From: a virus
Lineage: Duplodnaviria; Caudoviricetes
Length of the DNA stretch: 42,411 nucleotides
IMG/VR virus record: IMGVR_UViG_3300046778_000114
Location: 1 to 42,411 of that record
Strand: one strand, 5' to 3'
In this document: piece by piece, positions 6,363 to 18,432 of the stretch
Layout of the letters: each line of letters begins with the position of its first letter
Numbering within the stretch: the first letter of the stretch is position 1
Position numbers and translations under genes: made by a program
The notes under the pieces: generated by a model
Databases searched by the model: none
The model's input: only the letters and a program-made list of their open reading frames with translations
Told to the model about the DNA's origin: nothing

Positions 6363-6562
6363 CCAAAGAAAAAGAAGCCTTCCTTGCTCGCTGGGAGTTC
6401 AACGGGAAGATTGGCGCATGTCGTTTCTTTCTACAGATAATAGAGAGAGACAAAGCAGGAAGCAGTAAGCTCGCTTCCTTCGAGATCCTCAACCAGGTTC
6501 AAACCGCCGTAGCCGAAGTAACAAAGCTCGAGCGCCTTTTACGAGAAAGATTTAAGAAATGA
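6359..6562 (+). CDS. Hypothetical protein
   Basis: 67 aa; ATGA overlaps on both sides. Confidence 0.65.
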   Translation: MTKEKEAFLARWEFNGKIGACRFFLQIIERDKAGSSKLASFEILNQVQTAVAEVTKLERLLRERFKK

Positions 6563-8004
6563 CCTTCACCCCCACAGCTGAACAACTTGCCATAGTAGAG
6601 GCGGCGGTTGAGACCAAGGACAACCTCCTCATCTCTGCCCTTGCAGGGGCAGCCAAGACCTCGACCCTTCTCCTCATCGCCCAAGCCCTACGCAAGACCT
6701 CCATCCTATGCCTCTCTTTCAACAAGAAGATCGCCGACGAGATGCGCGTGCGCTTGCCTGCCAACTGTGAGTCAAAGACCCTCAACGCCCTCGGGCACGG
6801 GGCATGGGGGCAAACCCTCGGAACCCGCCTCACCCTCAACACAAAGAAGAACTACGAGATCCTCACCGCCCTTCTAAACCTTCTTACACCAGAAGAAAAG
6901 GAGGAAAACTTCGAAGCCTTCGCCGACATGCTCCGAGCCATCGAAACAGGCAAGACCGCCGGCTACATCCCCGACAAAGAGTTCCCCAAAGCCAAGCCTC
7001 TTCTTGACGACCAGGAGTTCTTCGACTCCCACCTTGACATAGAGTTCACCTCCCTTCAGCGTCAACTAATCCGCGATGCCTCGATCCAATCCCTCCAGCG
7101 TTCCTTCGAGGGCATCATCGACTTCAACGACCAGATCCTCATGCCCACCTGCTTCCCTTGTTCCCTTCCCCAGTACCCCCTCGTCCTCATCGACGAGGCG
7201 CAAGATCTTTCCTCCCTCAACCACGCCTTCATGCGTAAGTTCTGTAAGAAACGCCTAATTGCAGTTGGTGACGAATGCCAGGCTATATACGGTTTCCGAG
7301 GCGCCCACGCTTCTTCCATGCACGAGCTAAAAAAAACATTTTCTATGCGCGAACTAAAACTTTCCATCTCCTTCCGTTGCCCCGTCTCTATCGTCGAGGC
7401 CGCACGTTGGCGGGCTCCTCACATGCTCTACCCTGAGTGGGCAAAGCAAGGCGAAGTCACCACTCTTGATCTTTGGAACACTTCCCACCTCCCTTCTTCT
7501 GAAGTCGCCATAATTTGCCGAAACAACGCCCCACTTTTTTCCCTCGCTATTAAACTTATACGCGCAGGACGCTACCCTAAACTCGTGGGCAACGATCTCG
7601 GCAAAACCCTTCTTACCATAATGAACCGCTTCGGCTCTGCCTCCCTTCCCATTGAAGAGGCAGAAAAGAAACGGGAACGTTGGCTCAAGGGCAGGCTAAA
7701 GAAAGTCCGAGACCAAGGGGCTATCCGCGATCAAGCCGAGTGTATCCGCATCTTCTTCGAGGGCGAAACAACCCTCGGCGGGGCTGTGACAAAAGCTCAG
7801 AACCTCTTCTCTATGTCAGGTCCAATCGAGTTAATGACTGGTCACAAAGCGAAAGGCCTTGAGTTCTCTCACGTTTTCTTTCTCAACCAAGATCTTTTGC
7901 GCGACACTGGTCAGGACGGTAACCTCCGCTACGTCATCCAGACCCGTGCGAAAGAAACCCTAACCTACATAACCTTAGAAGGATTTCAACTAGAACCCAG
8001 TTAG
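6559..8004 (+). CDS. UvrD/Rep-like superfamily 1 DNA helicase
   Basis: TAEQ Q-motif, ALAGAAKT (Walker A variant), LIDEAQD, GDECQAIYGFRGA, SFRCP, ICRNNA, MTGHKAKGLEF, YVIQTRAKE. Confidence 0.93.
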   Translation: MTFTPTAEQLAIVEAAVETKDNLLISALAGAAKTSTLLLIAQALRKTSILCLSFNKKIADEMRVRLPANCESKTLNALGHGAWGQTLGTRLTLNTKKNYEILTALLNLLTPEEKEENFEAFADMLRAIETGKTAGYIPDKEFPKAKPLLDDQEFFDSHLDIEFTSLQRQLIRDASIQSLQRSFEGIIDFNDQILMPTCFPCSLPQYPLVLIDEAQDLSSLNHAFMRKFCKKRLIAVGDECQAIYGFRGAHASSMHELKKTFSMRELKLSISFRCPVSIVEAARWRAPHMLYPEWAKQGEVTTLDLWNTSHLPSSEVAIICRNNAPLFSLAIKLIRAGRYPKLVGNDLGKTLLTIMNRFGSASLPIEEAEKKRERWLKGRLKKVRDQGAIRDQAECIRIFFEGETTLGGAVTKAQNLFSMSGPIELMTGHKAKGLEFSHVFFLNQDLLRDTGQDGNLRYVIQTRAKETLTYITLEGFQLEPS

Positions 8005-8037
8005 GTATGGCTCCTGTAATAGTTCCAACAACCATAC
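8005..8037 (+). promoter_or_regulatory. 33-bp dyad element, copy 2
   Basis: GTATGG-CTC-CTGTAATAGTT-CCAACAA-CCATAC; intergenic, just upstream of a putative promoter. Confidence 0.75.
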
Positions 8038-8058
8038 TAAACTCCTCCAAAAAAGTTC

Positions 8059-8086
8059 TTTACATTCGTTTGAGACTATGTAATAT
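8059..8086 (+). promoter_or_regulatory. Putative sigma70-type promoter for the recombination/replication operon
   Basis: TTTACA-N16-TAATAT; same -35 hexamer as the promoter at 419. Confidence 0.5.
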
Positions 8087-8125
8087 TAAATTCGTTACCA
8101 ACCCAAACCCATAAAGGATTGAACA

Positions 8126-8632
8126 ATGACAACTAAGACAGTAATCATCTCCGGCCAATCATTTGAACTCGCATCACCCTACAATGAAGGCCATGTTCTT
8201 ACTGCAGCAGAAGCAAACGCAATGAACCAGCTTCGCCACGAGAACATTCGCAACAACGTTGCAAAAGCAGTTAAAGAAGCTTACGAGCTAGACACAGAAG
8301 AAGCGATCATCGCCGTTCTCGAGAAAGTCGCCGCTTACGATGCTGAGTACGCATTCCGTATCAGTGGAACAGGTGGCTCATCTACTCGCCTCGATCCAGT
8401 AGAACGCGAAGCTCGTGCAATTGCTAAAGCTGGGATCCTCAACCACCTACAAAAGAGCGGTCGCAACTTTAAGTCTGTTCCAGTCGATATGACTACAGAA
8501 GAGTGGGATGCAAAAATCGAGGCACAGATCAACATCCTTGCTACTTCCGATCAAGTGCTAGAAGCTGCACGTCAAGCAATTGTAGAGAAGAAAAATCGCC
8601 TTAATTCTCTTTCAGATGCACTTGTGCTCTAA
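8126..8632 (+). CDS. Alpha-helical hypothetical protein, probably abundant
   Basis: 168 aa; AAGGA RBS; own promoter; followed by stem-loops. Confidence 0.85.
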   Translation: MTTKTVIISGQSFELASPYNEGHVLTAAEANAMNQLRHENIRNNVAKAVKEAYELDTEEAIIAVLEKVAAYDAEYAFRISGTGGSSTRLDPVEREARAIAKAGILNHLQKSGRNFKSVPVDMTTEEWDAKIEAQINILATSDQVLEAARQAIVEKKNRLNSLSDALVL

Positions 8633-8640
8633 CCGTCCTT

Positions 8641-8696
8641 CACAAGGTTACCCCTTATCCTTGTGTGACTTACGCCGGATGGAACAGTAATCCGGC
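8641..8696 (+). terminator. Tandem stem-loops (terminator, attenuator or mRNA processing/stabilising site)
   Basis: CACAAGG/CCTTGTG (8641-8665) and GCCGGAT/ATCCGGC (8674-8696); no clear U-tract. Confidence 0.45.
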
Positions 8697-8729
8697 AACG
8701 ATTTCACCCCCTTAACGGAGCCCACTCTA

Positions 8730-9032
8730 ATGATCCTCACCCTCGTCGGCGTCAGCCACCTTACTCTTGAAGAAAAACTTTTAGTAAAAGATCTCGCAGA
8801 GCGCGATGAAGTATTCCTTCTTAGAGATCCAGAAAACGAGTACGACAGCAACGCGATTAAAGTTATCGACGCAGATAATAACCACCTTGGTTTCATCGCA
8901 AGTAAAGAAGCAAAAGAGCTAGCTCCTTTAATCGACGACGACGACGCTCGCAGCGATGAGACATACCGCGCCACAATCTTCTCCAAGCGCACCCCTCTAT
9001 CCGCACAAATAGAGTTTAATTACTTTGACTGA
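8730..9032 (+). CDS. Stand-alone HIRAN domain protein
   Basis: LLRDPENEYDSNAIKV...HLGFI is the HIRAN signature (L-x-REPxNxYDxNAIxV...LGY/F). Confidence 0.85.
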   Translation: MILTLVGVSHLTLEEKLLVKDLAERDEVFLLRDPENEYDSNAIKVIDADNNHLGFIASKEAKELAPLIDDDDARSDETYRATIFSKRTPLSAQIEFNYFD

Positions 9033-9237
9033 CCTCACAGAATTTCTTTACCGAGCGGCTTCAACTCCGCTCGGTATCATCGTAAAGACAGATGATGTTA
9101 CCAAACTCCGTTCTGCACTTTACTCCATCATCCGCGCAAGGCCAGCGGAGTTCGGTAACATCTCACTCGTACCTTCCCCAATAAACCTGAATGAACTTTT
9201 CCTAATCAGGAAGGAGCCCTCTAATGAAAGAGATTGA
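9025..9237 (+). CDS. Hypothetical protein
   Basis: 70 aa; TTG start; tightly packed in the operon. Confidence 0.7.
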   Translation: MTDLTEFLYRAASTPLGIIVKTDDVTKLRSALYSIIRARPAEFGNISLVPSPINLNELFLIRKEPSNERD

Positions 9238-9406
9238 GCCAATACAAAAACATACACTGAACCTTTACGAGGGCGACTTTGACTGTATTCAGCGAATGTT
9301 CCCACAACTCGGGGCAGCTAAAGTTATCCGCACCCTCGTGCGCCGCTACGTCAAAGAAAACAAGGATAAGAACACTCAACAGATAAACATAGAGGTAGAA
9401 ATCTAA
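9224..9406 (+). CDS. Putative ribbon-helix-helix DNA-binding protein
   Basis: Alternating beta-strand QKHTLNL followed by two helices ending AAKVIRTLVRRYV; 60 aa; AAGGAG RBS. Confidence 0.55.
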   Translation: MKEIEPIQKHTLNLYEGDFDCIQRMFPQLGAAKVIRTLVRRYVKENKDKNTQQINIEVEI

Positions 9407-9609
9407 TGGACATTGCCCAGATCTTTGCGACCGACCCTCTTAAACTTACCAAAGAAGATATTTCCTCCATCGTATGCGAAATGCGCAAACGCCGTGCTTC
9501 TTTTGTCCTCGGCAGCGTTACCGCAGGTAAAGTAAAAGCGCCTACCGAAAAACAAAAAGCAGTCTCTGCCCTTATCGAGAAAATTATCCCAGGAGGGTTA
9601 GACCTTTGA
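9406..9609 (+). CDS. Hypothetical protein
   Basis: 67 aa; TAATG coupling; GAGG RBS. Confidence 0.75.
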   Translation: MDIAQIFATDPLKLTKEDISSIVCEMRKRRASFVLGSVTAGKVKAPTEKQKAVSALIEKIIPGGLDL

Positions 9610-10568
9610 CCCAAGTTAGCAAATCCTTCACCACCTCCGGTCAGTTCTGTTGGGACTCAACCTCCCTATCCCTTGCCGCCACTTGCCCTCGCAAATACTA
9701 CTACAAGCTTATCGAGGGTTGGCAACCCGACCGCAGGTCAGTCCACCTCGAGTTCGGCAGCCACTACGCAACCGCGCTTGAGCATTACTTCAAACATCTC
9801 GCCGCAGGACTTTCCTCCGACGATGCCCTGATCGAGATCGTTAAGGAAGCCCTTATTGCTACGTGGGAGTACGACCTCGACGAAGAAGATAATCCTATCC
9901 CTGATACAGGCGCACCTTGGGAGTCCATGCACAATCTTAAAACTCGCGAGACCCTTATCCGCACTATCGTTTGGTACTTCGATCATTTCCGAGACGACCC
10001 CACCTCAGTGATCATGCTCGCCAACGGAGTACCAGGTGTCGAGTACACGTTCAAACTACCAGTTGACAACGACCTTATTTTCTCCGGCCACATCGACCGC
10101 CTCGTATCTTACTCCGACGATCCCTACATCATGGATCAGAAAACAACAGGCACAACAATCTCTGCCCGTTTCTTTTCTGAGTTTGACCTATCCCTTCAGA
10201 TGTCAATGTACACCTTCGCCGGCAAGATTATCTACAACCTCCCCGTGAAGGGCGCAATCATTGACGGGGCACAGATAGCCGTTGGCTTCAGTCGTTTTGA
10301 GCGCGGTTTCACTTTCCGCTCCGAGCCACAGCTTGAAGAGTGGTACGAGGAAATGCAAGGCATCGCCGCAGGTGCACGAAAAAACTTTGTCCAGTGGCAA
10401 GACTCTGCAAATACCGAACGTGCCTTCCCCCGTAATCTCACTGCTTGCGGTAACTACGGCGGCTGTGAGTTCCGCGAGATCTGTTCCAAGCCCAAGCAGT
10501 TCCGCGATCAATTTCTCCGAGGCTCATTTACAAGGAAAACTCCATGGGATCCGATGAACAACAGGTAA
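9606..10568 (+). CDS. PD-(D/E)XK exonuclease, RecB/Cas4-like, with probable Fe-S cysteines
   Basis: CPRKYYY, FGSHYA, GVEY, SGHIDR, MDQKTT, QMSMY and C-terminal ACGNYGGCEFREIC. Confidence 0.88.
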   Translation: MTQVSKSFTTSGQFCWDSTSLSLAATCPRKYYYKLIEGWQPDRRSVHLEFGSHYATALEHYFKHLAAGLSSDDALIEIVKEALIATWEYDLDEEDNPIPDTGAPWESMHNLKTRETLIRTIVWYFDHFRDDPTSVIMLANGVPGVEYTFKLPVDNDLIFSGHIDRLVSYSDDPYIMDQKTTGTTISARFFSEFDLSLQMSMYTFAGKIIYNLPVKGAIIDGAQIAVGFSRFERGFTFRSEPQLEEWYEEMQGIAAGARKNFVQWQDSANTERAFPRNLTACGNYGGCEFREICSKPKQFRDQFLRGSFTRKTPWDPMNNR

Positions 10569-10732
10569 CTTACTACATAATGTACAGAACAAAAGAGGGG
10601 CGCTATGACGCCCTACCTTGGACAAGACATCTTCCTTTCCTTTTGTCGTGTCCAGAAAATTACGACCTTCCTTCTTCCGTTAAAATAGTTTTCGTTGCAG
10701 AAAACCTAACCCAACTTTACATAATGAATTAA
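10544..10732 (+). CDS. Hypothetical protein
   Basis: 62-aa ORF filling the gap; AAGGA RBS. Confidence 0.5.
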   Translation: MGSDEQQVTYYIMYRTKEGRYDALPWTRHLPFLLSCPENYDLPSSVKIVFVAENLTQLYIMN

Positions 10733-10743
10733 GGAAAAATAAA

Positions 10744-11529
10744 ATGGCCAGTCTCGCAGACCATCACGGATCAAAGTTTGTAAAGCTTGCCTTCATCGGC
10801 GACAGTGGAACAGGAAAGACCGGCGCACTTGTCTCCCTTCTCAAGGCGGGATACAAACTTAAGATCCTCGACCTCGATAACGGCCTCGACGCCTTGCGTG
10901 AGTGGGCAAAAGTTGAATGCCCAGACAAACTCGCCAACGTCGATTACGAAACCCGCCGCGACAAGTACAAAGTCTCTGGTTCCCAGGGTCTGATCCTTGA
11001 TGGTCAGCCTAAAGCCTTCACCGACTCCCTTAAGCTAATGGAAAAATGGACTGACGAAACCAAGCCTAGTGAGTGGGGGGAAGAAACTATCTTCGTTATC
11101 GACTCCTTAACCGCTTACGGCAAGGCCGCTTTCGAGTGGGCAAAGGGGATGAACTCCTCGGCAAAAGATCCTCGCCAGTGGTTCTATTCCGCACAGCAAG
11201 CAATAGAGGATACAGTTGCGTTACTAACTGGGGAAGCGTTTAAAACAAACGTAATCATAATCTCACACGTCACTTACGACGAGTGGGCAGACGGTACAAC
11301 CAAAGGTACGATGTCAGCAGTTGGTAAAGCCCTCGGCCCAAAGCTCGCTAAGTACCTCAACACCCTTGTGCTAGCAGAGAAAACCGGCACCGGTTCCCTC
11401 GTCAAGCGGGTCATCCGCACCGCCCCTACCTCAGTAATTGATCTTAAAACTCCCGGCCCAGGTTTCCATGTTACCCTTCCCCTCGGAACTGGACTCGCGG
11501 AGATTTTTAAAAAGCTTAAGACGGCGTAA
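10744..11529 (+). CDS. AAA_24 / Sak4-like ATPase (putative single-strand annealing recombinase)
   Basis: GDSGTGKT, ILDLDNG, FVIDSLT, IIISHV; located between an exonuclease and an SSB-like gene. Confidence 0.8.
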   Translation: MASLADHHGSKFVKLAFIGDSGTGKTGALVSLLKAGYKLKILDLDNGLDALREWAKVECPDKLANVDYETRRDKYKVSGSQGLILDGQPKAFTDSLKLMEKWTDETKPSEWGEETIFVIDSLTAYGKAAFEWAKGMNSSAKDPRQWFYSAQQAIEDTVALLTGEAFKTNVIIISHVTYDEWADGTTKGTMSAVGKALGPKLAKYLNTLVLAEKTGTGSLVKRVIRTAPTSVIDLKTPGPGFHVTLPLGTGLAEIFKKLKTA

Positions 11530-11586
11530 CGTACTCGTCTAAGAGGTGAGCCGAGCACCTTCCTCGGTATTTAATGGAGAACTTAA

Positions 11587-12054
11587 ATGGTAAATTTTGC
11601 TGCGATCGCAAACAAGAAACTAGCAGATGTTGAACGCCCACCTATCCCACCACTTGGCATGTACCGCTTCACTATAACAAAGCCAGCGCAGATTGAAGAG
11701 ATTGCAAACGGCGCGTACACAAACATAACACTGATTTGTAAAGCGCTAGAAGCATACGAGAACGTTGACACAGATGAACTCGCTACATTTGGAGGAGTTT
11801 CTAACGTAGTTTCTTCAGTAAAGTTTCTTTACGATAATAACGATGCAAACAAGGGGGCGCAAATTGAGTTCCGTATTCGCCAGTTTCTTGAGAAACATTG
11901 TGCGATTGAAGGCGTTGCAGCCATGACGATTGGCGAAGGACTGGCTAAAGCAGTTAACTGTCAATTCGACGGCGAGATCAAGCACCGTGCTGATAAGAAC
12001 GATCCGGAAGTAAAGTATGCCGAGATCCAAAGAACAGCGCCCATTCGTGAATAG
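11587..12054 (+). CDS. Putative ssDNA-binding protein (DUF669-like OB fold)
   Basis: PIPPLGMYRFTITK N-terminal motif and C-terminal KH...YAEI; follows the Sak4-like gene. Confidence 0.65.
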   Translation: MVNFAAIANKKLADVERPPIPPLGMYRFTITKPAQIEEIANGAYTNITLICKALEAYENVDTDELATFGGVSNVVSSVKFLYDNNDANKGAQIEFRIRQFLEKHCAIEGVAAMTIGEGLAKAVNCQFDGEIKHRADKNDPEVKYAEIQRTAPIRE

Positions 12055-12346: not shown

Positions 12347-13582
12347 ATGATCACCGCTGGCCAGCCTTTAGCTATTTCCTCCATCACCATCGATCGCGAG
12401 AACCGTCAGCGCCGTGAGCTAACTGACATCCCAGACCTCGCCGCTTCGATCGCGCGTTACGGCCTGTTTCACCCTATCGTAGTAGATCGGGAAGGCAACC
12501 TCGTAGCAGGTGAACGCCGATTAACCGCCGTCACCTCCCTTGGCTGGTCACATATCGAGGTGCGGTACGTTGACGAACTCGAACCCGAAGATCTGCACAT
12601 GATCGAGCTGGAAGAAAACATCAAACGCAAGAACCTTACATGGCAGGAAGAAGCAACCGCTGTTGGAAAGTACCACGATCTAAAACAAAAGCAAGAACCT
12701 GGCTGGACTAAAGAAGCAACCGCGCAGGAACTTAATGTATCAAGCTCTTTAATTTCCAAGAAGCTCGATCTCGCGAAAGAGATCGAAAAAGGAAATGAAA
12801 AGATTATAGCGCAGCCGCAAATGAAAACTGCCCTAAACGTTCTCCATAGAAGTAAAGAACGAGAGAGAAACTCTATTCTTTCTTCTCTTGCAGGTACTAA
12901 TAAAGATGCGCCTGTAGTCCCACTTCTAAACACGGACTTCAACGAGTGGGCGCAATCTTACACAGGCAATAAGTTCAACCTTATTCATTGCGATTTTCCT
13001 TACGGTATCAACGCAGATGGACAGAAGCAGGGCAGTAACATTGATAACTACGGCGGGTATGCGGACGGGAAAGAAGTTTACTTCACCCTCCTTAAAACCC
13101 TCAAGACCGCTATGTCAAACGTAGTAGCAGACTCCGCTCACCTTATCTTCTGGTTTTCAATGGACTACTACCGAATTACTTTATCTCTCCTTACTGAAAT
13201 GGGCTGGAAGGTTAACCCGTTCCCCCTCATCTGGCACAAGTCCGACAACACAGGACTACTCCCCGATCCAAAACGAGGACCTCGCCGAATTTACGAGACA
13301 GCTTTCTTTGCCTCACGCGGAGATCGTCTAGTAGTTCAAGCCGTCTCCAACGTCTTTTCTCACCCAGGTAAAGATAAGGAAATTCACATGAGTGAAAAGC
13401 CAGTGCCAATGCTCAAGCACTTCTTTCGTATGGTGTGCGATGCAAACAGCGTGATGCTAGATCCGACCGCCGGCAGTGCTAACTCACTCAAAGCCGCCAA
13501 AAGCCTGAACGCTAACTACGTTCTCGGACTAGAAAAGAGTGAAGAGTTCTATAAACGTTCTTGTGAAGCATGGGAGAAATAA
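12347..13582 (+). CDS. ParB-N/HTH fused to a beta-class N6-adenine/N4-cytosine DNA methyltransferase
   Basis: ParB box (SIARYGLFHPIVV, LVAGERRL, ELEENIKRKNL), HTH (WTKEATAQELNVSSSLIS), catalytic DFPY, HMSEKP, SAM motif LDPTAGS. Confidence 0.85.
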   Translation: MITAGQPLAISSITIDRENRQRRELTDIPDLAASIARYGLFHPIVVDREGNLVAGERRLTAVTSLGWSHIEVRYVDELEPEDLHMIELEENIKRKNLTWQEEATAVGKYHDLKQKQEPGWTKEATAQELNVSSSLISKKLDLAKEIEKGNEKIIAQPQMKTALNVLHRSKERERNSILSSLAGTNKDAPVVPLLNTDFNEWAQSYTGNKFNLIHCDFPYGINADGQKQGSNIDNYGGYADGKEVYFTLLKTLKTAMSNVVADSAHLIFWFSMDYYRITLSLLTEMGWKVNPFPLIWHKSDNTGLLPDPKRGPRRIYETAFFASRGDRLVVQAVSNVFSHPGKDKEIHMSEKPVPMLKHFFRMVCDANSVMLDPTAGSANSLKAAKSLNANYVLGLEKSEEFYKRSCEAWEK

Positions 13583-13601
13583 GATGACGGAGGAGGTAGA
13601 A

Positions 13602-13997
13602 ATGGCTAGAAGCATCGAAAATCATATTAAAAGACAAATAGAAGCAGAAAAAAATAAAAGCGGCGACTGGAAAGACTTACCAGCGGATGCCTCGATACCA
13701 GCAGAGAAAGAATTGTTTACCGAGAGGAAGGAGGTACTTAAGGTATTAGGCAAACAACTTTTACCGCAACCGGCTACTACAAAACACGATCAAGTTGAGT
13801 GCCCCGTTCACTACAATTCTCACCCTAGTGGCATTGAATGCATAGAGATAACGCGGCACATGAACTTCAATCTCGGCAACGCTATCAAGTACATCTGGCG
13901 GGCGGATAGTAAAGGGGCTGCGTTAGTTGATTTAGAAAAAGCTGCATTTTATATTCGGGACGAGATATCAAGAAGGAAGAACCAAATTGCAGAATAA
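13602..13997 (+). CDS. DUF3310 protein (related to T7 gp1.7 nucleotide kinase / SaV)
   Basis: DQVECPVHY...IECIEI...FNLGNAIKYIWRA..KG...DLEKAAFY; GGAGG RBS before 13602. Confidence 0.85.
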   Translation: MARSIENHIKRQIEAEKNKSGDWKDLPADASIPAEKELFTERKEVLKVLGKQLLPQPATTKHDQVECPVHYNSHPSGIECIEITRHMNFNLGNAIKYIWRADSKGAALVDLEKAAFYIRDEISRRKNQIAE

Positions 13998-14994
13998 AAT
14001 CTTAATCTGCGGTGAAGCCTTCGGGCGACAAGAGGAAGAAGCCGGCCAGCCTTTCGTGGGGGCTGCCGGTTTTCTCTTATCTCAAGTCCTTGCACAAAAC
14101 GGGATTGAGAAAAAAGATTGCTACCTCACAAACGTGTTTAACTTCCACCTAGCTGGTGGGGATATTAAAAGCATTACTGTATCAGATAAACGCGCAGCTA
14201 TAGTCGGTATACCTAAGCACCCCTCGGGCTGGATAAGTAACGAGTACACCCACGAACTAACCCGCCTCAAGAAAGAGATCGCCACGATCAAGCCCAACCT
14301 GATCCTTGCTCTCGGCGGCACAGCTTCTTGGTTCTTCCTCCAAGACTCCCGGATTTCAAAAGTCCGAGGGGCGTCTGTGCAAACAGAGTTCGGCAAGGTA
14401 CTTTGCTCCTATCATCCGGCAGCGGTTCTGCGCGATTACTCTTTGCGCCCGATCCTTACCGCCGACTGTGCTAAAGCAGCAAGGGAACAGGAGTATCCAG
14501 ACGTTCGCCGCCTCCGGCGCTTCGTTCACATCGAGCCGTCTTTGTCCGACATCCTTTCTTTCCACGAAACTTTTATCGAGCCTTCCCTCGTCCTATCCAC
14601 CGACATCGAGACTATAAGTAATCAGATAACTTGCATCGGGCTTGCGCCTACCAAGGATCGCGCCATTGTAATTCCCTTCTACGACCCTACAAAACCAGGG
14701 GGAAACTATTGGTCGACACTCGAGGAAGAACTTAAGGTTTGGGATTACCTCAGGAAACTCTTTCGCTCCCCGCGCATAAACGTAGGACAAAACTTTATGT
14801 ACGATGCAGGTTTCTTGTGGCGTTCATACGGCATTCCAGTTCACGGAATGATTAACGGTGATGACACAATGCTAATGCACCACGCGCTTCAGCCGGAACT
14901 ACAAAAAGGCCTCGCTTTTCTCGGCAGCATATACACTGACGAAGCGGCATGGAAAATGGAGCGGAAAAATACATCAGTTAAAAAGGAGGACTGA
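13987..14994 (+). CDS. Family-4-like uracil-DNA glycosylase fused to the N-terminal part (ExoI, ExoII) of a PolA 3'-5' exonuclease
   Basis: GEAFG, PFVGAAG, YLTNV, LALGGTA, YHPAAVLR; then STDIET (ExoI), GQNFMYD (ExoII), DDTMLMHH. Confidence 0.88.
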   Translation: MQNKILICGEAFGRQEEEAGQPFVGAAGFLLSQVLAQNGIEKKDCYLTNVFNFHLAGGDIKSITVSDKRAAIVGIPKHPSGWISNEYTHELTRLKKEIATIKPNLILALGGTASWFFLQDSRISKVRGASVQTEFGKVLCSYHPAAVLRDYSLRPILTADCAKAAREQEYPDVRRLRRFVHIEPSLSDILSFHETFIEPSLVLSTDIETISNQITCIGLAPTKDRAIVIPFYDPTKPGGNYWSTLEEELKVWDYLRKLFRSPRINVGQNFMYDAGFLWRSYGIPVHGMINGDDTMLMHHALQPELQKGLAFLGSIYTDEAAWKMERKNTSVKKED

Positions 14995-14995
14995 G

Positions 14996-15136
14996 ATGCA
15001 AGAGCAATGGAGCGATTGGCAACCTGTAAAAGGTTTTTGGAGGTTGTTCGGTTGGAAGTCCCGCCGATCGTTTGCCTGTAGAAACGTTTCTGATTTAGTC
15101 ATTTATTACGAGTACTCAAAAGAAAGGAAGCACTGA
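14996..15136 (+). CDS. 46-aa Trp-rich hypothetical protein
   Basis: Hand translation MQEQWSDWQPVKGFWRLFGWKSRRSFACRNVSDLVIYYEYSKERKH; GGAGG RBS. Confidence 0.6.
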   Translation: MQEQWSDWQPVKGFWRLFGWKSRRSFACRNVSDLVIYYEYSKERKH

Positions 15137-15138
15137 CA

Positions 15139-15285
15139 ATGGAAGTACATGAAACAGCTACAGATCATTTTTTACAAAGTAATGAAGTCAATCGAGAACG
15201 GGAATTGCATACGCTTTTAATACAGGAAAGAAAAGAACTCAATGAAAAATATCTCGCTATAATAGAAAATCTTTCAAAAGGATGA
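15139..15285 (+). CDS. 48-aa coiled-coil-like hypothetical protein
   Basis: MEVHETATDHF...IIENLSKG; AAGGA RBS; ATGA overlap with the next gene. Confidence 0.6.
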   Translation: MEVHETATDHFLQSNEVNRERELHTLLIQERKELNEKYLAIIENLSKG

Positions 15286-15620
15286 AGAAGATGATCTACC
15301 TCGCTTCCCCCTACTCACACGAAAACTCTATCATACGGGAACTCCGCTACCACCAAGTTTTGCTCCACTGCGAGACCCGAATGAAGGAGGGCAAATCGAT
15401 ATTCTCCCCGATCGTGTACGGCCATCAGTTCGCTGTAAACTTTGACTTCCCTTATGCTGCAAAGACCTGGGAGTTCTTCAATTTCGAGATGCTTGGTGCC
15501 GCTAATAAAGTTGAGGTGCTTTTGCTAGATGGATGGGACGAGTCCCTTGGTGTTGAAACAGAGATAGATTGGGCTCAAAGGTTCGGTAAACCCCTCACTT
15601 ACGTTGAGTTTAACAAATGA
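15282..15620 (+). CDS. DUF1937 protein (nucleoside 2-deoxyribosyltransferase-like fold)
   Basis: IYLASPYSH, FSPIVYGH, LDGWDESLGVETEI...A...GKP. Confidence 0.8.
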   Translation: MKKMIYLASPYSHENSIIRELRYHQVLLHCETRMKEGKSIFSPIVYGHQFAVNFDFPYAAKTWEFFNFEMLGAANKVEVLLLDGWDESLGVETEIDWAQRFGKPLTYVEFNK

Positions 15621-17218
15621 AAATAATTGACACAGAGAAACTGCGCTTTGACACCGGCACATACGGCGAGCAGTCCCTAACAAGTAATGAACGGGAGTGG
15701 ATATACAACGGCTTCGACGCCGCAGTTACTCTTGAGGTTCGTGACGCTTTACTTCCTCAACTCGACTCAGTAGCCCGCCATACTTACGACTTCTCCCGCG
15801 CCCTACAAGGCCCGATTATGGAGATGACTCTTCGCGGGCTACTCGTTGACCAGAACAGGCGCGGAGCTGTACTTCATTCCACAGTGCGGGACATCGAAAT
15901 CCTCAACACACAGTTGATGGAAATCGTTTCCGAGGGCGTAGGCTTTCCTTGCTCTTCTCCACTTTGGTGGCGCAGTAACGCACAGCTACAGAACCTTTTT
16001 TACAAAGTAATGGAGCTAAAGCCTATTAAGAAGCGCAACGCCAACGGTATCTTCGCTCCAACTGTTAACCGCGAAGCTATAGAGAAGCTTTCCATAAATT
16101 TCTACGCCGAGCCTATTTGCAATCACATCCTAGCCCTGCGCGACCTTGACAAGAAACGGTCGTTCCTCGAGACCGGCATCGACTCAGACGGACGCTTCCG
16201 GTACGGCTTTAACATCGCCGGCACAAACACGGGTCGTCTTTCTTCCTCCGCTTCCGACTTCGGTACTGGAAGTAATTCACAGAACATCAGTCGTTCTCTC
16301 CGCTCAATCTTTTGCGCAGACCGTGGCATGAAGTTCTGTAACATAGATCTCGAGCAAGCAGACTCCCGTAACCTCGGCGCTATGTGCTGGAATATTTTCA
16401 AAGGAACAGAACACGATGCAGTTATCGGCCGCTACCTTGACGCTTGTGAGTCCGGCGACCTTCACACTTTCGTCTGCCGGATGGCAAACCCACAGCTACC
16501 GTGGCCGAAAGAACGGAAAGGCTGGCGGGCTATAGCGGATGAGATCGCCTACCGAGACTTTTCTTACCGCGATATGGCGAAGCGACTCGGACACGGCACA
16601 AACTTCTACGGCACTGCCCCGACAATGGCGATGCACACCAAGATCCCTGTGTCAAACGTTCGGGAATTTCAGTCGGGTTACTTCGAGGGTTTTCCAGAAA
16701 TCCAGCTATTTCACAAGTGGGTAAGGGAACAGCTTCATACACATTCTTCCCTCACCACCCTGTTTAATCGCCGCCGCCACTTCTTTGGTCGTGCACAAGA
16801 CGACAGCACCTTGCGGGAAGCAATTTCTTTTTGCCCACAGTCAATGACGGGAGAAGAAATTAACATCGGCCTCCTTAACATCTTCCGCTCCGGTAAGGTA
16901 CAGATCCTTGTCCAGGTTCACGACTCTCTTCTCTTCCAGTACCCTGAAGAACTCGAGGACGAAATTGTACCGTGGGCGATCGAGGCAATTAAAGCCCCGC
17001 TCGTACTTAAGGGCGGCCGCGAGTTCTGCGTACCAACCGAGGCCAAAGTAGGCTGGAACTGGGGAGACATCGAGATGTGGAATAAAGACCATGTTAGGCG
17101 GGGAATGTGTTTACCTTCCCAGGTCGGGAGCGTCAAGGACAACCCAGATGGGCTGATAAAATACAAAGGTAATGATAGCCGCAAAAGAACTTCCCACTCT
17201 AAACTCCGGTTTAAATGA
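15617..17218 (+). CDS. Family A DNA polymerase, C-terminal subunit (ExoIII plus polymerase domain)
   Basis: YNGFD (ExoIII), GTNTGRLSSS, NSQNI, motif A IDLEQADSR, motif B RDMAKRLGHGTNFYG, motif C QVHDS. Confidence 0.93.
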   Translation: MKIIDTEKLRFDTGTYGEQSLTSNEREWIYNGFDAAVTLEVRDALLPQLDSVARHTYDFSRALQGPIMEMTLRGLLVDQNRRGAVLHSTVRDIEILNTQLMEIVSEGVGFPCSSPLWWRSNAQLQNLFYKVMELKPIKKRNANGIFAPTVNREAIEKLSINFYAEPICNHILALRDLDKKRSFLETGIDSDGRFRYGFNIAGTNTGRLSSSASDFGTGSNSQNISRSLRSIFCADRGMKFCNIDLEQADSRNLGAMCWNIFKGTEHDAVIGRYLDACESGDLHTFVCRMANPQLPWPKERKGWRAIADEIAYRDFSYRDMAKRLGHGTNFYGTAPTMAMHTKIPVSNVREFQSGYFEGFPEIQLFHKWVREQLHTHSSLTTLFNRRRHFFGRAQDDSTLREAISFCPQSMTGEEINIGLLNIFRSGKVQILVQVHDSLLFQYPEELEDEIVPWAIEAIKAPLVLKGGREFCVPTEAKVGWNWGDIEMWNKDHVRRGMCLPSQVGSVKDNPDGLIKYKGNDSRKRTSHSKLRFK

Positions 17219-18432
17219 TGAGAAAACAACGTAAATTAGTAAACTGGATAGACGGCTTTTACGCCTACACAGCAGGCCTACCCTCGCCGGATTTGTTCCG
17301 GAAGTGGGGGGCGATTTCGGCTGTCGCAGGGGCGCTTGAACGGAAGGTTTGGATAACTACAAACGTAGCCCCGCTTTATCCGAACCTTTTCTGCGTACTA
17401 GTCGGGCCTCCAGGTGTAGGGAAAACAGTAGTCACAAGAACTGTACAAAAGTTATGGCAGAGTCTTGACGACCACCACCTCGCTTCCTCTTCTGTTTCCA
17501 AAGCCTCCCTCATGGATGAGCTGCGAGAAGCGGAACGCAAGGGGGTGGTAACGAACAAAGACGACCAAGGTGGTTTTGGGCAATTCAATTTTAACTCGTT
17601 AAAGATCCTCGCCAATGAACTCGGTGTGTTGATCCCGGGTTATGATAACGAGTTTATGAACGTACTCACAGACGTGTATGATGGACACCCGTACTCGGAG
17701 CGGAAAAGAAGCGCGGCACTTAAGTTTATGATTGATAAGCCACAGTTAAATCTTCTGGCCGCAACAACCCCGTCTTACCTCAACAACGTAATGCCAGAAG
17801 GCGCTTGGACACAAGGGTTTATTTCCAGGGTAAATCTTATCTATTCCGGCGACAGCCATTTACAGGATCTTTTCAGCGACAACTCGAGGAACGAGAAGCT
17901 AGGAAAGGAACTTACCTTCGATCTTAATTCTATTGGCAAGCTGTATGGCCCGATGCAATTTGAACCTGATGCAAGAATAGGATTTACCCAGTGGCATCTT
18001 GCCGGTGGTCCTCCGCAACCAGACCACCCAAAACTCGCCACGTATAATATCCGCCGTAGTGCGCACCTGCTTAAGTTGTGCATGGTTGCCAGTGCAAGTT
18101 CCGGCGACAGTCTAAGCATTACGTTAGAGAATTTTACCGAGGCACTTGACTGGTTACTCGAAGCCGAGTCTCACATGCCCGACATCTTCAAAGCAATGAA
18201 CGCCGGCGGCGACAGCACGGTTATTAACGAGGCGTGGCATTTCCTCTACACCCTTTATATCAAGGACAAAAAGCCGATCCTTGAGAACCGGCTGGTAAAC
18301 TTTATTCAACAAAGAACTCCGGCCCACAACGTAATGAAGATTGTAGAAATTATGCAGAAGGCCGGACTGATTAAAAGACAGATGAATAATATGGGATTGT
18401 ATGAGGTTGTTCCTGAAGGCAGGAAGAACTAA
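17215..18432 (+). CDS. DUF3987-like P-loop ATPase, probable replicative helicase, with no primase domain
   Basis: YPNLFCVLVGPPGVGKT, Walker B-like ILANELG, LTDVYDG, LNLLAATTP, GFISR arginine-finger-like motif. Confidence 0.75.
   Translation: MMRKQRKLVNWIDGFYAYTAGLPSPDLFRKWGAISAVAGALERKVWITTNVAPLYPNLFCVLVGPPGVGKTVVTRTVQKLWQSLDDHHLASSSVSKASLMDELREAERKGVVTNKDDQGGFGQFNFNSLKILANELGVLIPGYDNEFMNVLTDVYDGHPYSERKRSAALKFMIDKPQLNLLAATTPSYLNNVMPEGAWTQGFISRVNLIYSGDSHLQDLFSDNSRNEKLGKELTFDLNSIGKLYGPMQFEPDARIGFTQWHLAGGPPQPDHPKLATYNIRRSAHLLKLCMVASASSGDSLSITLENFTEALDWLLEAESHMPDIFKAMNAGGDSTVINEAWHFLYTLYIKDKKPILENRLVNFIQQRTPAHNVMKIVEIMQKAGLIKRQMNNMGLYEVVPEGRKN

Follow-up and report, generated by a model that had tools for sequence, protein, structure and literature searches.

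Can the proofreading site of a DNA polymerase be divided over two gene products? The question is raised by positions 13,987 to 17,218 of a 42,411-nucleotide stretch of viral DNA (Caudoviricetes; IMG/VR record IMGVR_UViG_3300046778_000114; hereafter the window), where a first-pass annotation, made from the letters alone, had described a family A DNA polymerase (PolA) split inside its exonuclease domain: one gene (N) carries a uracil-DNA glycosylase (UDG)-like domain together with the motifs ExoI and ExoII, a second gene (C) begins with ExoIII and continues into the polymerase, and three open reading frames (ORFs) lie between them. The split and the positions given for both genes and their motifs proved exact on recheck (Table 1). 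Sequence comparison and structure prediction, set out below, lead us to consider it very probable that an ancestral single-chain UDG-PolA underwent fission and that its products form a fixed heterodimer, in which both chains contribute to the proofreading site.

N and C are the two halves of one UDG-PolA. Pfam finds UDG at residues 3–153 of N (E 8e-21) and DNA_pol_A_exo1 at residues 224–318 (E 4e-4, below the cut-off of that family), and finds DNA_pol_A (PF00476) on C (E 8e-28); the PHROG polymerase profile phrog_17 is matched by N over positions 480–788 and by C over the adjacent 808–1241. The AlphaFold2 model of N has a predicted local distance difference test (pLDDT) score of 93.5, with a tail at about 50, and its residues 178–331 match residues 328–486 of the Klenow fragment (Z 14.6, root-mean-square deviation (rmsd) 2.6, 146 residues). 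As the match stops at residue 486, N ends just before ExoIII, which we take to be Y497/D501 in Klenow. The model of C (pLDDT 92.1) opens with helices and retrieves KlenTaq and the Bacillus fragment (BF) in Foldseek at an E of about 1e-19. By its sequence C belongs to the family A DNA polymerases, with palm, fingers and thumb and with motifs A, B and C, and D244, R318, K322, H435 and D436 are invariant in the top-match alignment for C (A2; 119 rows, mean column identity 59%). The DEDDy set is complete over the two chains, N supplying the D-x-E of ExoI and the D of ExoII, and C the Y-x3-D of ExoIII.

N starts with TTG and closes with TGA at 14992–14994; C starts with ATG. The stop of N is retained in a second assembly whose proteins are 99% identical (L003) and in a contig from another run (X3), so the cut is neither a chance event nor an assembly slip; X3 departs from the window sequence five bases past this stop. 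The window comprises most of a phage genome (a 44,263-base IMG/VR contig encodes 99% identical proteins), and the runs that contain its DNA are freshwater metagenomes.

A survey of homologues for a conserved split point, as the first-pass annotation had proposed, returned 157 split loci (duplicates, the window and the cultured Caulobacter phage Kuura included) that fall into 131 clusters at 90%, and the cut always lies in the same loop before ExoIII. When IMG/VR was scanned with the alignment of N (best 80 of 460 confirmed matches, from 25 of the 64 parts of the collection), N ended at most 15 codons from the same place in 80 of 80 loci, and C was a separate ORF in all 74 loci that have it in view, the other six contigs ending too early. 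A polymerase-side scan and a scan of GTDB contigs gave 85 more loci, 80 of them split and one fused (L094); in the remaining four N is out of view (two), inverted (one) or matched through UDG only (one). Of 128 full-length N proteins, 126 have a recognisable ExoI and all 128 an ExoII, and ExoIII is found on C in 131 of 131 clusters and in the N tail in 0 of 128. The best 120 protein-database relatives of N measure 327–363 residues, in a search whose design could not reveal fused forms; among the best 120 relatives of the polymerase, a search admitting proteins of up to 933 residues found no fused protein, 119 having 496–553 residues and one having 816 with an intein. Kuura is cut at the same place, with a pair of unrelated ORFs separating gp029 (N, labelled hypothetical) from gp026 (C), and is described as reaching 2.3e10 plaque-forming units (pfu)/mL (PMC9959647).

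With this distribution, the chance that the locus is a broken or misassembled pseudogene is negligible. The window was assembled from metagenomic reads, N is inverted in one relative (L155) and has a frameshifted tail in another (L090), but the same cut recurs with intact motifs across the 131 clusters and in Kuura. In L155 (700–4537) the inversion is relative to the polymerase gene, a truncated methyltransferase gene adjoins it, and the arrangement is possibly a misassembly. Intein-like inserts are noted in P0343/P0176, where one starts directly at ExoIII in a fused relative and the other interrupts the palm in a split polymerase. Five other loci (L019, L072, L085, L091 and L095) have polymerase ORFs of 780–830 residues and are candidates for such inserts.

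Most distant relatives, none above 38% identity, have a single chain. The search for longer relatives yielded 359 proteins, the best 120 of which are only 29–38% identical, and among annotated phages Mel-JY34, ctMlz233, LS06-2018-MD01 and vir526 have the single-chain form. In most of the fused rows printed, there are 49–50 residues between the D-T-M motif and the ExoIII tyrosine, and the halves are joined by a loop that follows a W-K pair and measures about 16 residues; the corresponding distance in the window is 43 + 29 = 72 residues, so about 23 residues represent new termini. (The placement by MAFFT of the first residues of C on the first UDG strand of fused proteins was treated as an alignment artefact.) Trees were built for each half from 45 split N or 41 split C sequences chosen for diversity, 44 fused rows and two otherwise split rows, with the polymerases of N4, SPO1, phiLo and YerA41 outside the sampling. 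In these trees 44 of the 45 split N and 40 of the 41 split C sequences form one clade nested among the fused enzymes (SH-like support 99 and 100), and IQ-TREE on 33 rows agrees (SH-aLRT 100 for the split clade). On this sequence evidence the cut is old and clade-wide.

The sole split row outside the clade, L093 (metagenome-assembled genome (MAG) contig JAGWIG010000017.1, 8939–9356), groups with the fused enzyme of a Desulfofustis phage (support 98), with a long-branch warning in the N tree. Its 409-base insert, which holds two small ORFs and no Rfam match, is flanked by a 9-base direct repeat, GGATGAATC, at 8939 and 9348; N ends in KDES and C begins with MKMDES. L093 thus looks like a second, independent and younger fission of the same loop that apparently retains its duplication. 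Two further relatives are cut elsewhere: the UDG-PolA of Vibrio phage vB_VspS_VS-ABTNL-3 (MF497422; L170, 4462–7596) is split in the palm after an NLQN motif, with a 184-residue ORF between the two polymerase parts, and that of MW202554 (L171, 1727–4364) is split after ExoIII, an S-SBP1-type cut, with a gap of 151 bases. The UDG-PolA family therefore seems to tolerate fission at several sites.

We next consider whether the two genes might yield one polypeptide after all, by RNA splicing, by ribosomal frameshifting or bypassing, or by protein trans-splicing. Group I introns are described in phage polA genes (PMC10580990), HNH genes occupy the gap in 11 of the 131 clusters, and inteins occur elsewhere in the UDG-PolA family. 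The gap, however, is constrained neither in length (at most 15 nucleotides in 11 clusters, 16–200 in 7 and more than 200 in 113; median 514, range from a 4-base overlap to 5,080 bases) nor in frame (47/33/51), and in the 11 closest pairs an intron would not fit. Conservation at the protein level extends to both new termini, which account for the residues gained relative to fused forms, and the stretches on either side of the cut are short, at about 13 and 29 residues. A search with Rfam at gathering scores found nothing in the window or in five related loci, and neither did one over 14700–15900 at E values up to 1. The new ends, inspected for intein termini, are too short and have neither Cys1 nor His-Asn, which we take as the criteria, and no intein family appeared in the Pfam scan; the first-pass annotation had likewise seen no intron or intein features. 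The free length and frame of the gap, the abutting genes, the conserved extra termini and the lack of an Rfam match contradict splicing, recoding and trans-splicing alike, and we regard a single polypeptide as highly improbable.

The products of the two genes were then modelled together, as had been suggested at the outset. The predicted complex of N and C scored 0.91, against 0.00 for the best of three controls; the mark used for this score is reached by 116 of 157 solved pairs and by 2 of 215 mismatched pairs. The runs agree in at least 91% of contacts, and partner pLDDT is at least 88. In the predicted interface, which comprises 232–244 contacts and runs through a domain core, the ExoIII helix of C sits in the exonuclease core of N: C 27–46 packs on N 204–228 and 266–316, C35 contacts N204, N206 and N220, and C4 contacts N179–180; the tail of N is not placed. 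These data attest to fit, not to binding.

The heterodimer could form and yet use its exonuclease domain as a structural scaffold without proofreading. With new termini now on either side of the ExoIII helix, the site could be distorted, but D206, E208 and D273 are kept in 120 of 120 rows of the top-match alignment for N (A1) and Y30 and D34 in 119 of 119 rows of A2, against mean column identities of 51% and 59%, and we hold this possibility to be very unlikely.

A further alternative is that the split serves as a switch, with loose subunits such that C copies without proofreading or N acts as a free glycosylase, and with their ratio setting fidelity. This would agree with the retention of the cut across a deep clade with no reversion in the sampled rows, with halves that can lie kilobases apart, with the confident folding of each half alone in silico, and with the binding of another partner by CCPol, described as a PolA with only three exonuclease helices (PMC10201439). 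It agrees less well with the large predicted interface through a domain core, with the abutting genes of 11 of 131 relatives, with the lack of promoter-like or terminator-like sites in the gap (consensus scan only), and with the account in the same paper that PolAs need the exonuclease domain for stability. We consider such loose subunits unlikely. A related proposal, which we find doubtful on the evidence at hand, is that the proofreading site itself is an assembly-dependent switch and that the UDG-exonuclease chain could be loaded, released or retargeted to another base; as the polymerase chain holds the last catalytic acid, exonuclease activity would then appear only upon docking, and the features cited for it are the clade-specific aromatic residue in UDG motif A and the conserved, free acidic tail of N. 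If correct, it would describe a replicase with a separately made, exchangeable editing and base-scanning subunit. Of the first-pass reading, the replicase with a proofreading site assembled in trans finds support in conservation, phylogeny and complex prediction, whereas the corollary that subunit stoichiometry sets fidelity and uracil scanning found no support: the data fit a coupled operon and a 1:1 enzyme.

Several points weigh against the fixed heterodimer. The case rests on sequence comparison and structure prediction; halves of split genes tend to pass complex prediction through their likeness to solved single-chain enzymes, so that the score shows fit rather than binding in the cell; and in the output metal positions are not given and D273 is missing from the interface residues. 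The split loci were gathered by similarity to the window proteins, which makes the clade partly search-defined, and the argument from the growth of Kuura presumes that this phage replicates with its own polymerase. Finally, the UDG domain lacks the Fe-S segment, has an aromatic residue instead of Pro in motif A, and in the window also deviates from the clade at residues 54, 55 and 58.

Taken together, we favour the fixed heterodimer and propose the following course. A single-chain UDG-exonuclease-polymerase gene was cut within the loop that links the exonuclease core to the ExoIII helix, likely through an insertion or frameshift in this tolerant loop, after which the gap would have become an ordinary slot for small genes. 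Both halves are presumably translated from one operon by coupled initiation. The ExoIII helix of C and the helices that follow are predicted to dock in the exonuclease core of N as they do in single-chain PolA, and the new N-terminal strand of C to add a clasp on N. The result would be a 1:1 replicative enzyme whose site draws D206, E208 and D273 from N and Y30 and D34 from C, in which neither half would proofread alone and the UDG domain would be carried along on the complex.

The content of the gap bears on the expression of the pair. The three intervening ORFs described earlier are present in the window, but the two small ones are broken or absent in L003, where DUF1937 has diverged relative to the window, and DUF1937, recognised by Pfam at 15282–15620, is the only one that looks like a stable gene. 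In the 131 clusters the commonest occupant is DUF1937 (56), followed by DUF7768 (19), HNH (11) and KTSC (6), and the rest have other genes or nothing; on this comparison the intervening ORFs are exchangeable passengers outside the mechanism. A homing endonuclease was considered as the cause of the cut, which is not established with HNH genes in only 11 of 131 gaps; an HNH profile had no match in the locus of Kuura. DUF1937 and DUF7768, two deoxyribosyltransferase-like families, alternate in the gap and never occur together, and a gene of this kind directly precedes the polymerase gene in 69 cases. This alternation may reflect a nucleotide-pool or base-removal step tied to the UDG domain. A required third subunit was rejected, since both families are absent from 56 of 131 gaps, are never both present, and in the fused Mel-JY34 such a gene stands upstream of an intact polymerase gene. 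In L080 (8002–13083) a 5-kb gap between the halves holds two tail-fibre or baseplate-like genes.

The codons of the N tail double as a Shine-Dalgarno-like AAGGAGG (14983–14989) for the next ORF. In 96 of 131 clusters a Shine-Dalgarno-like 4-mer falls within the last five codons of N, where synonymous resampling of the tail leads one to expect 55.8 ± 4.4 (500 rounds, maximum 68); the 4-mer is missing from 25 of the 108 clusters that bear the protein tail motif. The excess of such sites, together with these 25 clusters, suggests that the tail serves coupled translation and may also act as protein; a purely protein motif was rejected because part of the conservation is that of a ribosome-binding site. 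A promoter and terminator consensus scan gave counts at shuffle level and nothing on the coding strand in the N-C gap. Abutting genes, the Shine-Dalgarno-like tail and the lack of promoter or terminator sites in the gap fit a single operon with coupled translation that yields an enzyme of fixed 1:1 composition.

The UDG domain of N superimposes on Thermus thermophilus UDG (1ui0) with Z 19.9 and rmsd 1.8 over 151 residues. The pocket residues, to which we assign the roles of the Glu, Glu, Phe, Asn, His and Arg of motifs A and B, are kept in most of the 120 split rows (E10 in 114, E16 in 110, F23 in 119, N49 in 118, H143 in 116 and R149 in 116). N begins at the equivalent of T. thermophilus residue 32 and lacks the Fe-S-binding N-terminus that free family 4 enzymes have. 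In the split clade motif A takes the form GEA[W/Y/F]G: at position 12, 111 of 120 split rows have W, Y or F, whereas 111 of 120 fused rows have Pro. N thus departs on both counts from what we take to be the marks of family 4, the 4Fe-4S cysteines and a GE(A/G)PG motif. The fused UDG domains of phiLo and YerA41 are described as excising uracil ahead of synthesis (Missoury et al., PMC13697223), and by analogy the UDG domain of the split enzyme likely clears template uracil in the same way.

How does this arrangement compare with known systems? Split polymerases are known, and so are split active sites. The first split PolA was reported in S-SBP1-like, T7-like cyanophages (Czernecki et al., 2023, PMC10201439), where, as described there and as in the window, fission has placed a family A polymerase in two genes with a predicted re-associated complex. 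The S-SBP1 exo gene, translated here, encodes a chain with ExoI, ExoII and ExoIII together, so the active site is not divided; the two S-SBP1 genes overlap and there is no UDG domain, whereas in the window the cut runs through the exonuclease site and the gaps of the clade usually hold unrelated genes. Judged by sequence, the window enzyme is not a member of the S-SBP1-like group. The polymerase chain of CCPol-MP (PMC10201439) is likewise described as starting with the last exonuclease helices, like C, but according to that account a search of the neighbourhood did not reveal the rest of the exonuclease, its place is predicted to be taken by an unrelated protein, and no proofreading site is rebuilt. 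In MEP401-type phages PolA is described as split within the polymerase domain (PMC10580990). The split family B polymerases (gp43 of T4-like phages, archaeal PolB) are, in the published description, replicative enzymes in two genes with 2 bp to 3 kb of variable DNA between (PMC3061061), and differ in family and in their cut, which lies in the finger tip or the palm.

Single-chain UDG-PolA enzymes (N4-like cluster 17, SPO1-like and SP15-like), as described (PMC13697223), have the same UDG-exonuclease-polymerase order as the window, which also keeps the UDG pocket residues found in the active SPO1 and SP15 types (phiLo 9qhs, YerA41 9qlh). In that description all of these are one chain, in contrast to the two ORFs of the window, and the SP15-like enzymes have >1000 residues with large inserts; the main text of the paper does not contain the word 'split'. 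In a protein search of 50,697 phage records, matches to SP-15 were confined to the UDG domain, and a scan of 25 window proteins turned up no recognisable thymidine-modification gene. For assembly, we draw a likeness to NrdA-a/NrdA-b of Aeromonas phage Aeh1, split by mobE, for which a two-chain active site, no splicing, new tails and an inserted gene are described (PMC3045599); that enzyme is a ribonucleotide reductase with a homing endonuclease identifiable as the cause, which sets it apart from a clade with few HNH genes in its gaps. By these analogies the split PolA most likely works like single-chain UDG-PolA and assembles like Aeh1 NrdA. We found no published account of a PolA cut between ExoII and ExoIII in literature that left most subscription journals and supplements uncovered, and the division of a family A polymerase through its proofreading active site, over two gene products, seems not to have been reported before.

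The lineage with this probably divided site is large and includes a cultured phage. The split accounts for a likely gap in annotation, as database entries name one half 'uracil-DNA glycosylase' or 'hypothetical' and the other 'DNA polymerase'. For the construction of two-part or switchable proofreading polymerases, the loop is a natural place to divide the chain, and the repeated cuts, in the same loop in L093 and also at other sites, make the fixation of fissions in essential genes testable.

Table 1. Positions of the two polymerase genes, their motifs and adjoining features in the window.
Feature	Position	Strand	Remark
Gene N, 335 aa	13987..14994	+	family-4-like UDG domain and DnaQ exonuclease core (ExoI, ExoII), without the ExoIII helix
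UDG domain, aa 1-172	13987..14502	+	structural match to family 4 UDG
ExoI (D206, E208)	14602..14610	+	both kept in 120/120 rows of A1
ExoII (N269...D273)	14791..14805	+	both kept in 120/120 rows of A1
New C-terminal tail of N, T-x-K-[KR]-E-D-stop	14974..14994	+	
Passenger ORF, 46 aa, no family	14996..15136	+	stop at codon 2 in L003
Passenger ORF, 48 aa, 31% G+C, no family	15139..15285	+	cleanly absent from L003
DUF1937 / nucleoside 2-deoxyribosyltransferase-like gene	15282..15620	+	ATGA overlap with the start of C
Gene C, 533 aa	15617..17218	+	new N-terminal segment, ExoIII helix, thumb, palm and fingers of family A polymerase
New N-terminus of C, M-[KR]-I-I-x-T	15617..15637	+	conserved; predicted to touch N at aa 179-180, in its first exonuclease strand
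ExoIII (Y30...D34) on chain C	15704..15718	+	119/119 in A2; 131/131 clusters
Polymerase motif A (D244; Asp249 at E710 position)	16346..16363	+	
Polymerase motif B (R318, K322; His326 at 762 position)	16568..16609	+	
Polymerase motif C (H435, D436)	16919..16927	+	
DUF3987 / primase-like AAA gene	17215..18432	+	overlaps the stop of C; replication-operon context

Of two positions of the polymerase domain, to which we assign the E. coli PolA numbers 710 and 762, the former is Asp (window 16361–16363), and the latter is His (16592–16594) in 119 of 119 split and 112 of 120 fused rows. A virome survey is described as having retained only F, L or Y at 762 (PMC9069017), so the UDG-PolA family studied here would have dropped out of it.

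Upstream of N, the window (12347–13997) encodes a ParB-N6/N4 methyltransferase fusion and a DUF3310 protein, and a methyltransferase or ParB-like gene is found upstream likewise in five annotated relatives. Over 6559–12054 and 19560–41540 the + strand carries genes for a UvrD-like helicase, HIRAN, a PD-(D/E)XK nuclease and Sak4-like proteins, and the − strand carries podovirus-type portal, capsid, tail and terminase genes and a glycoside hydrolase 108 lysin gene.

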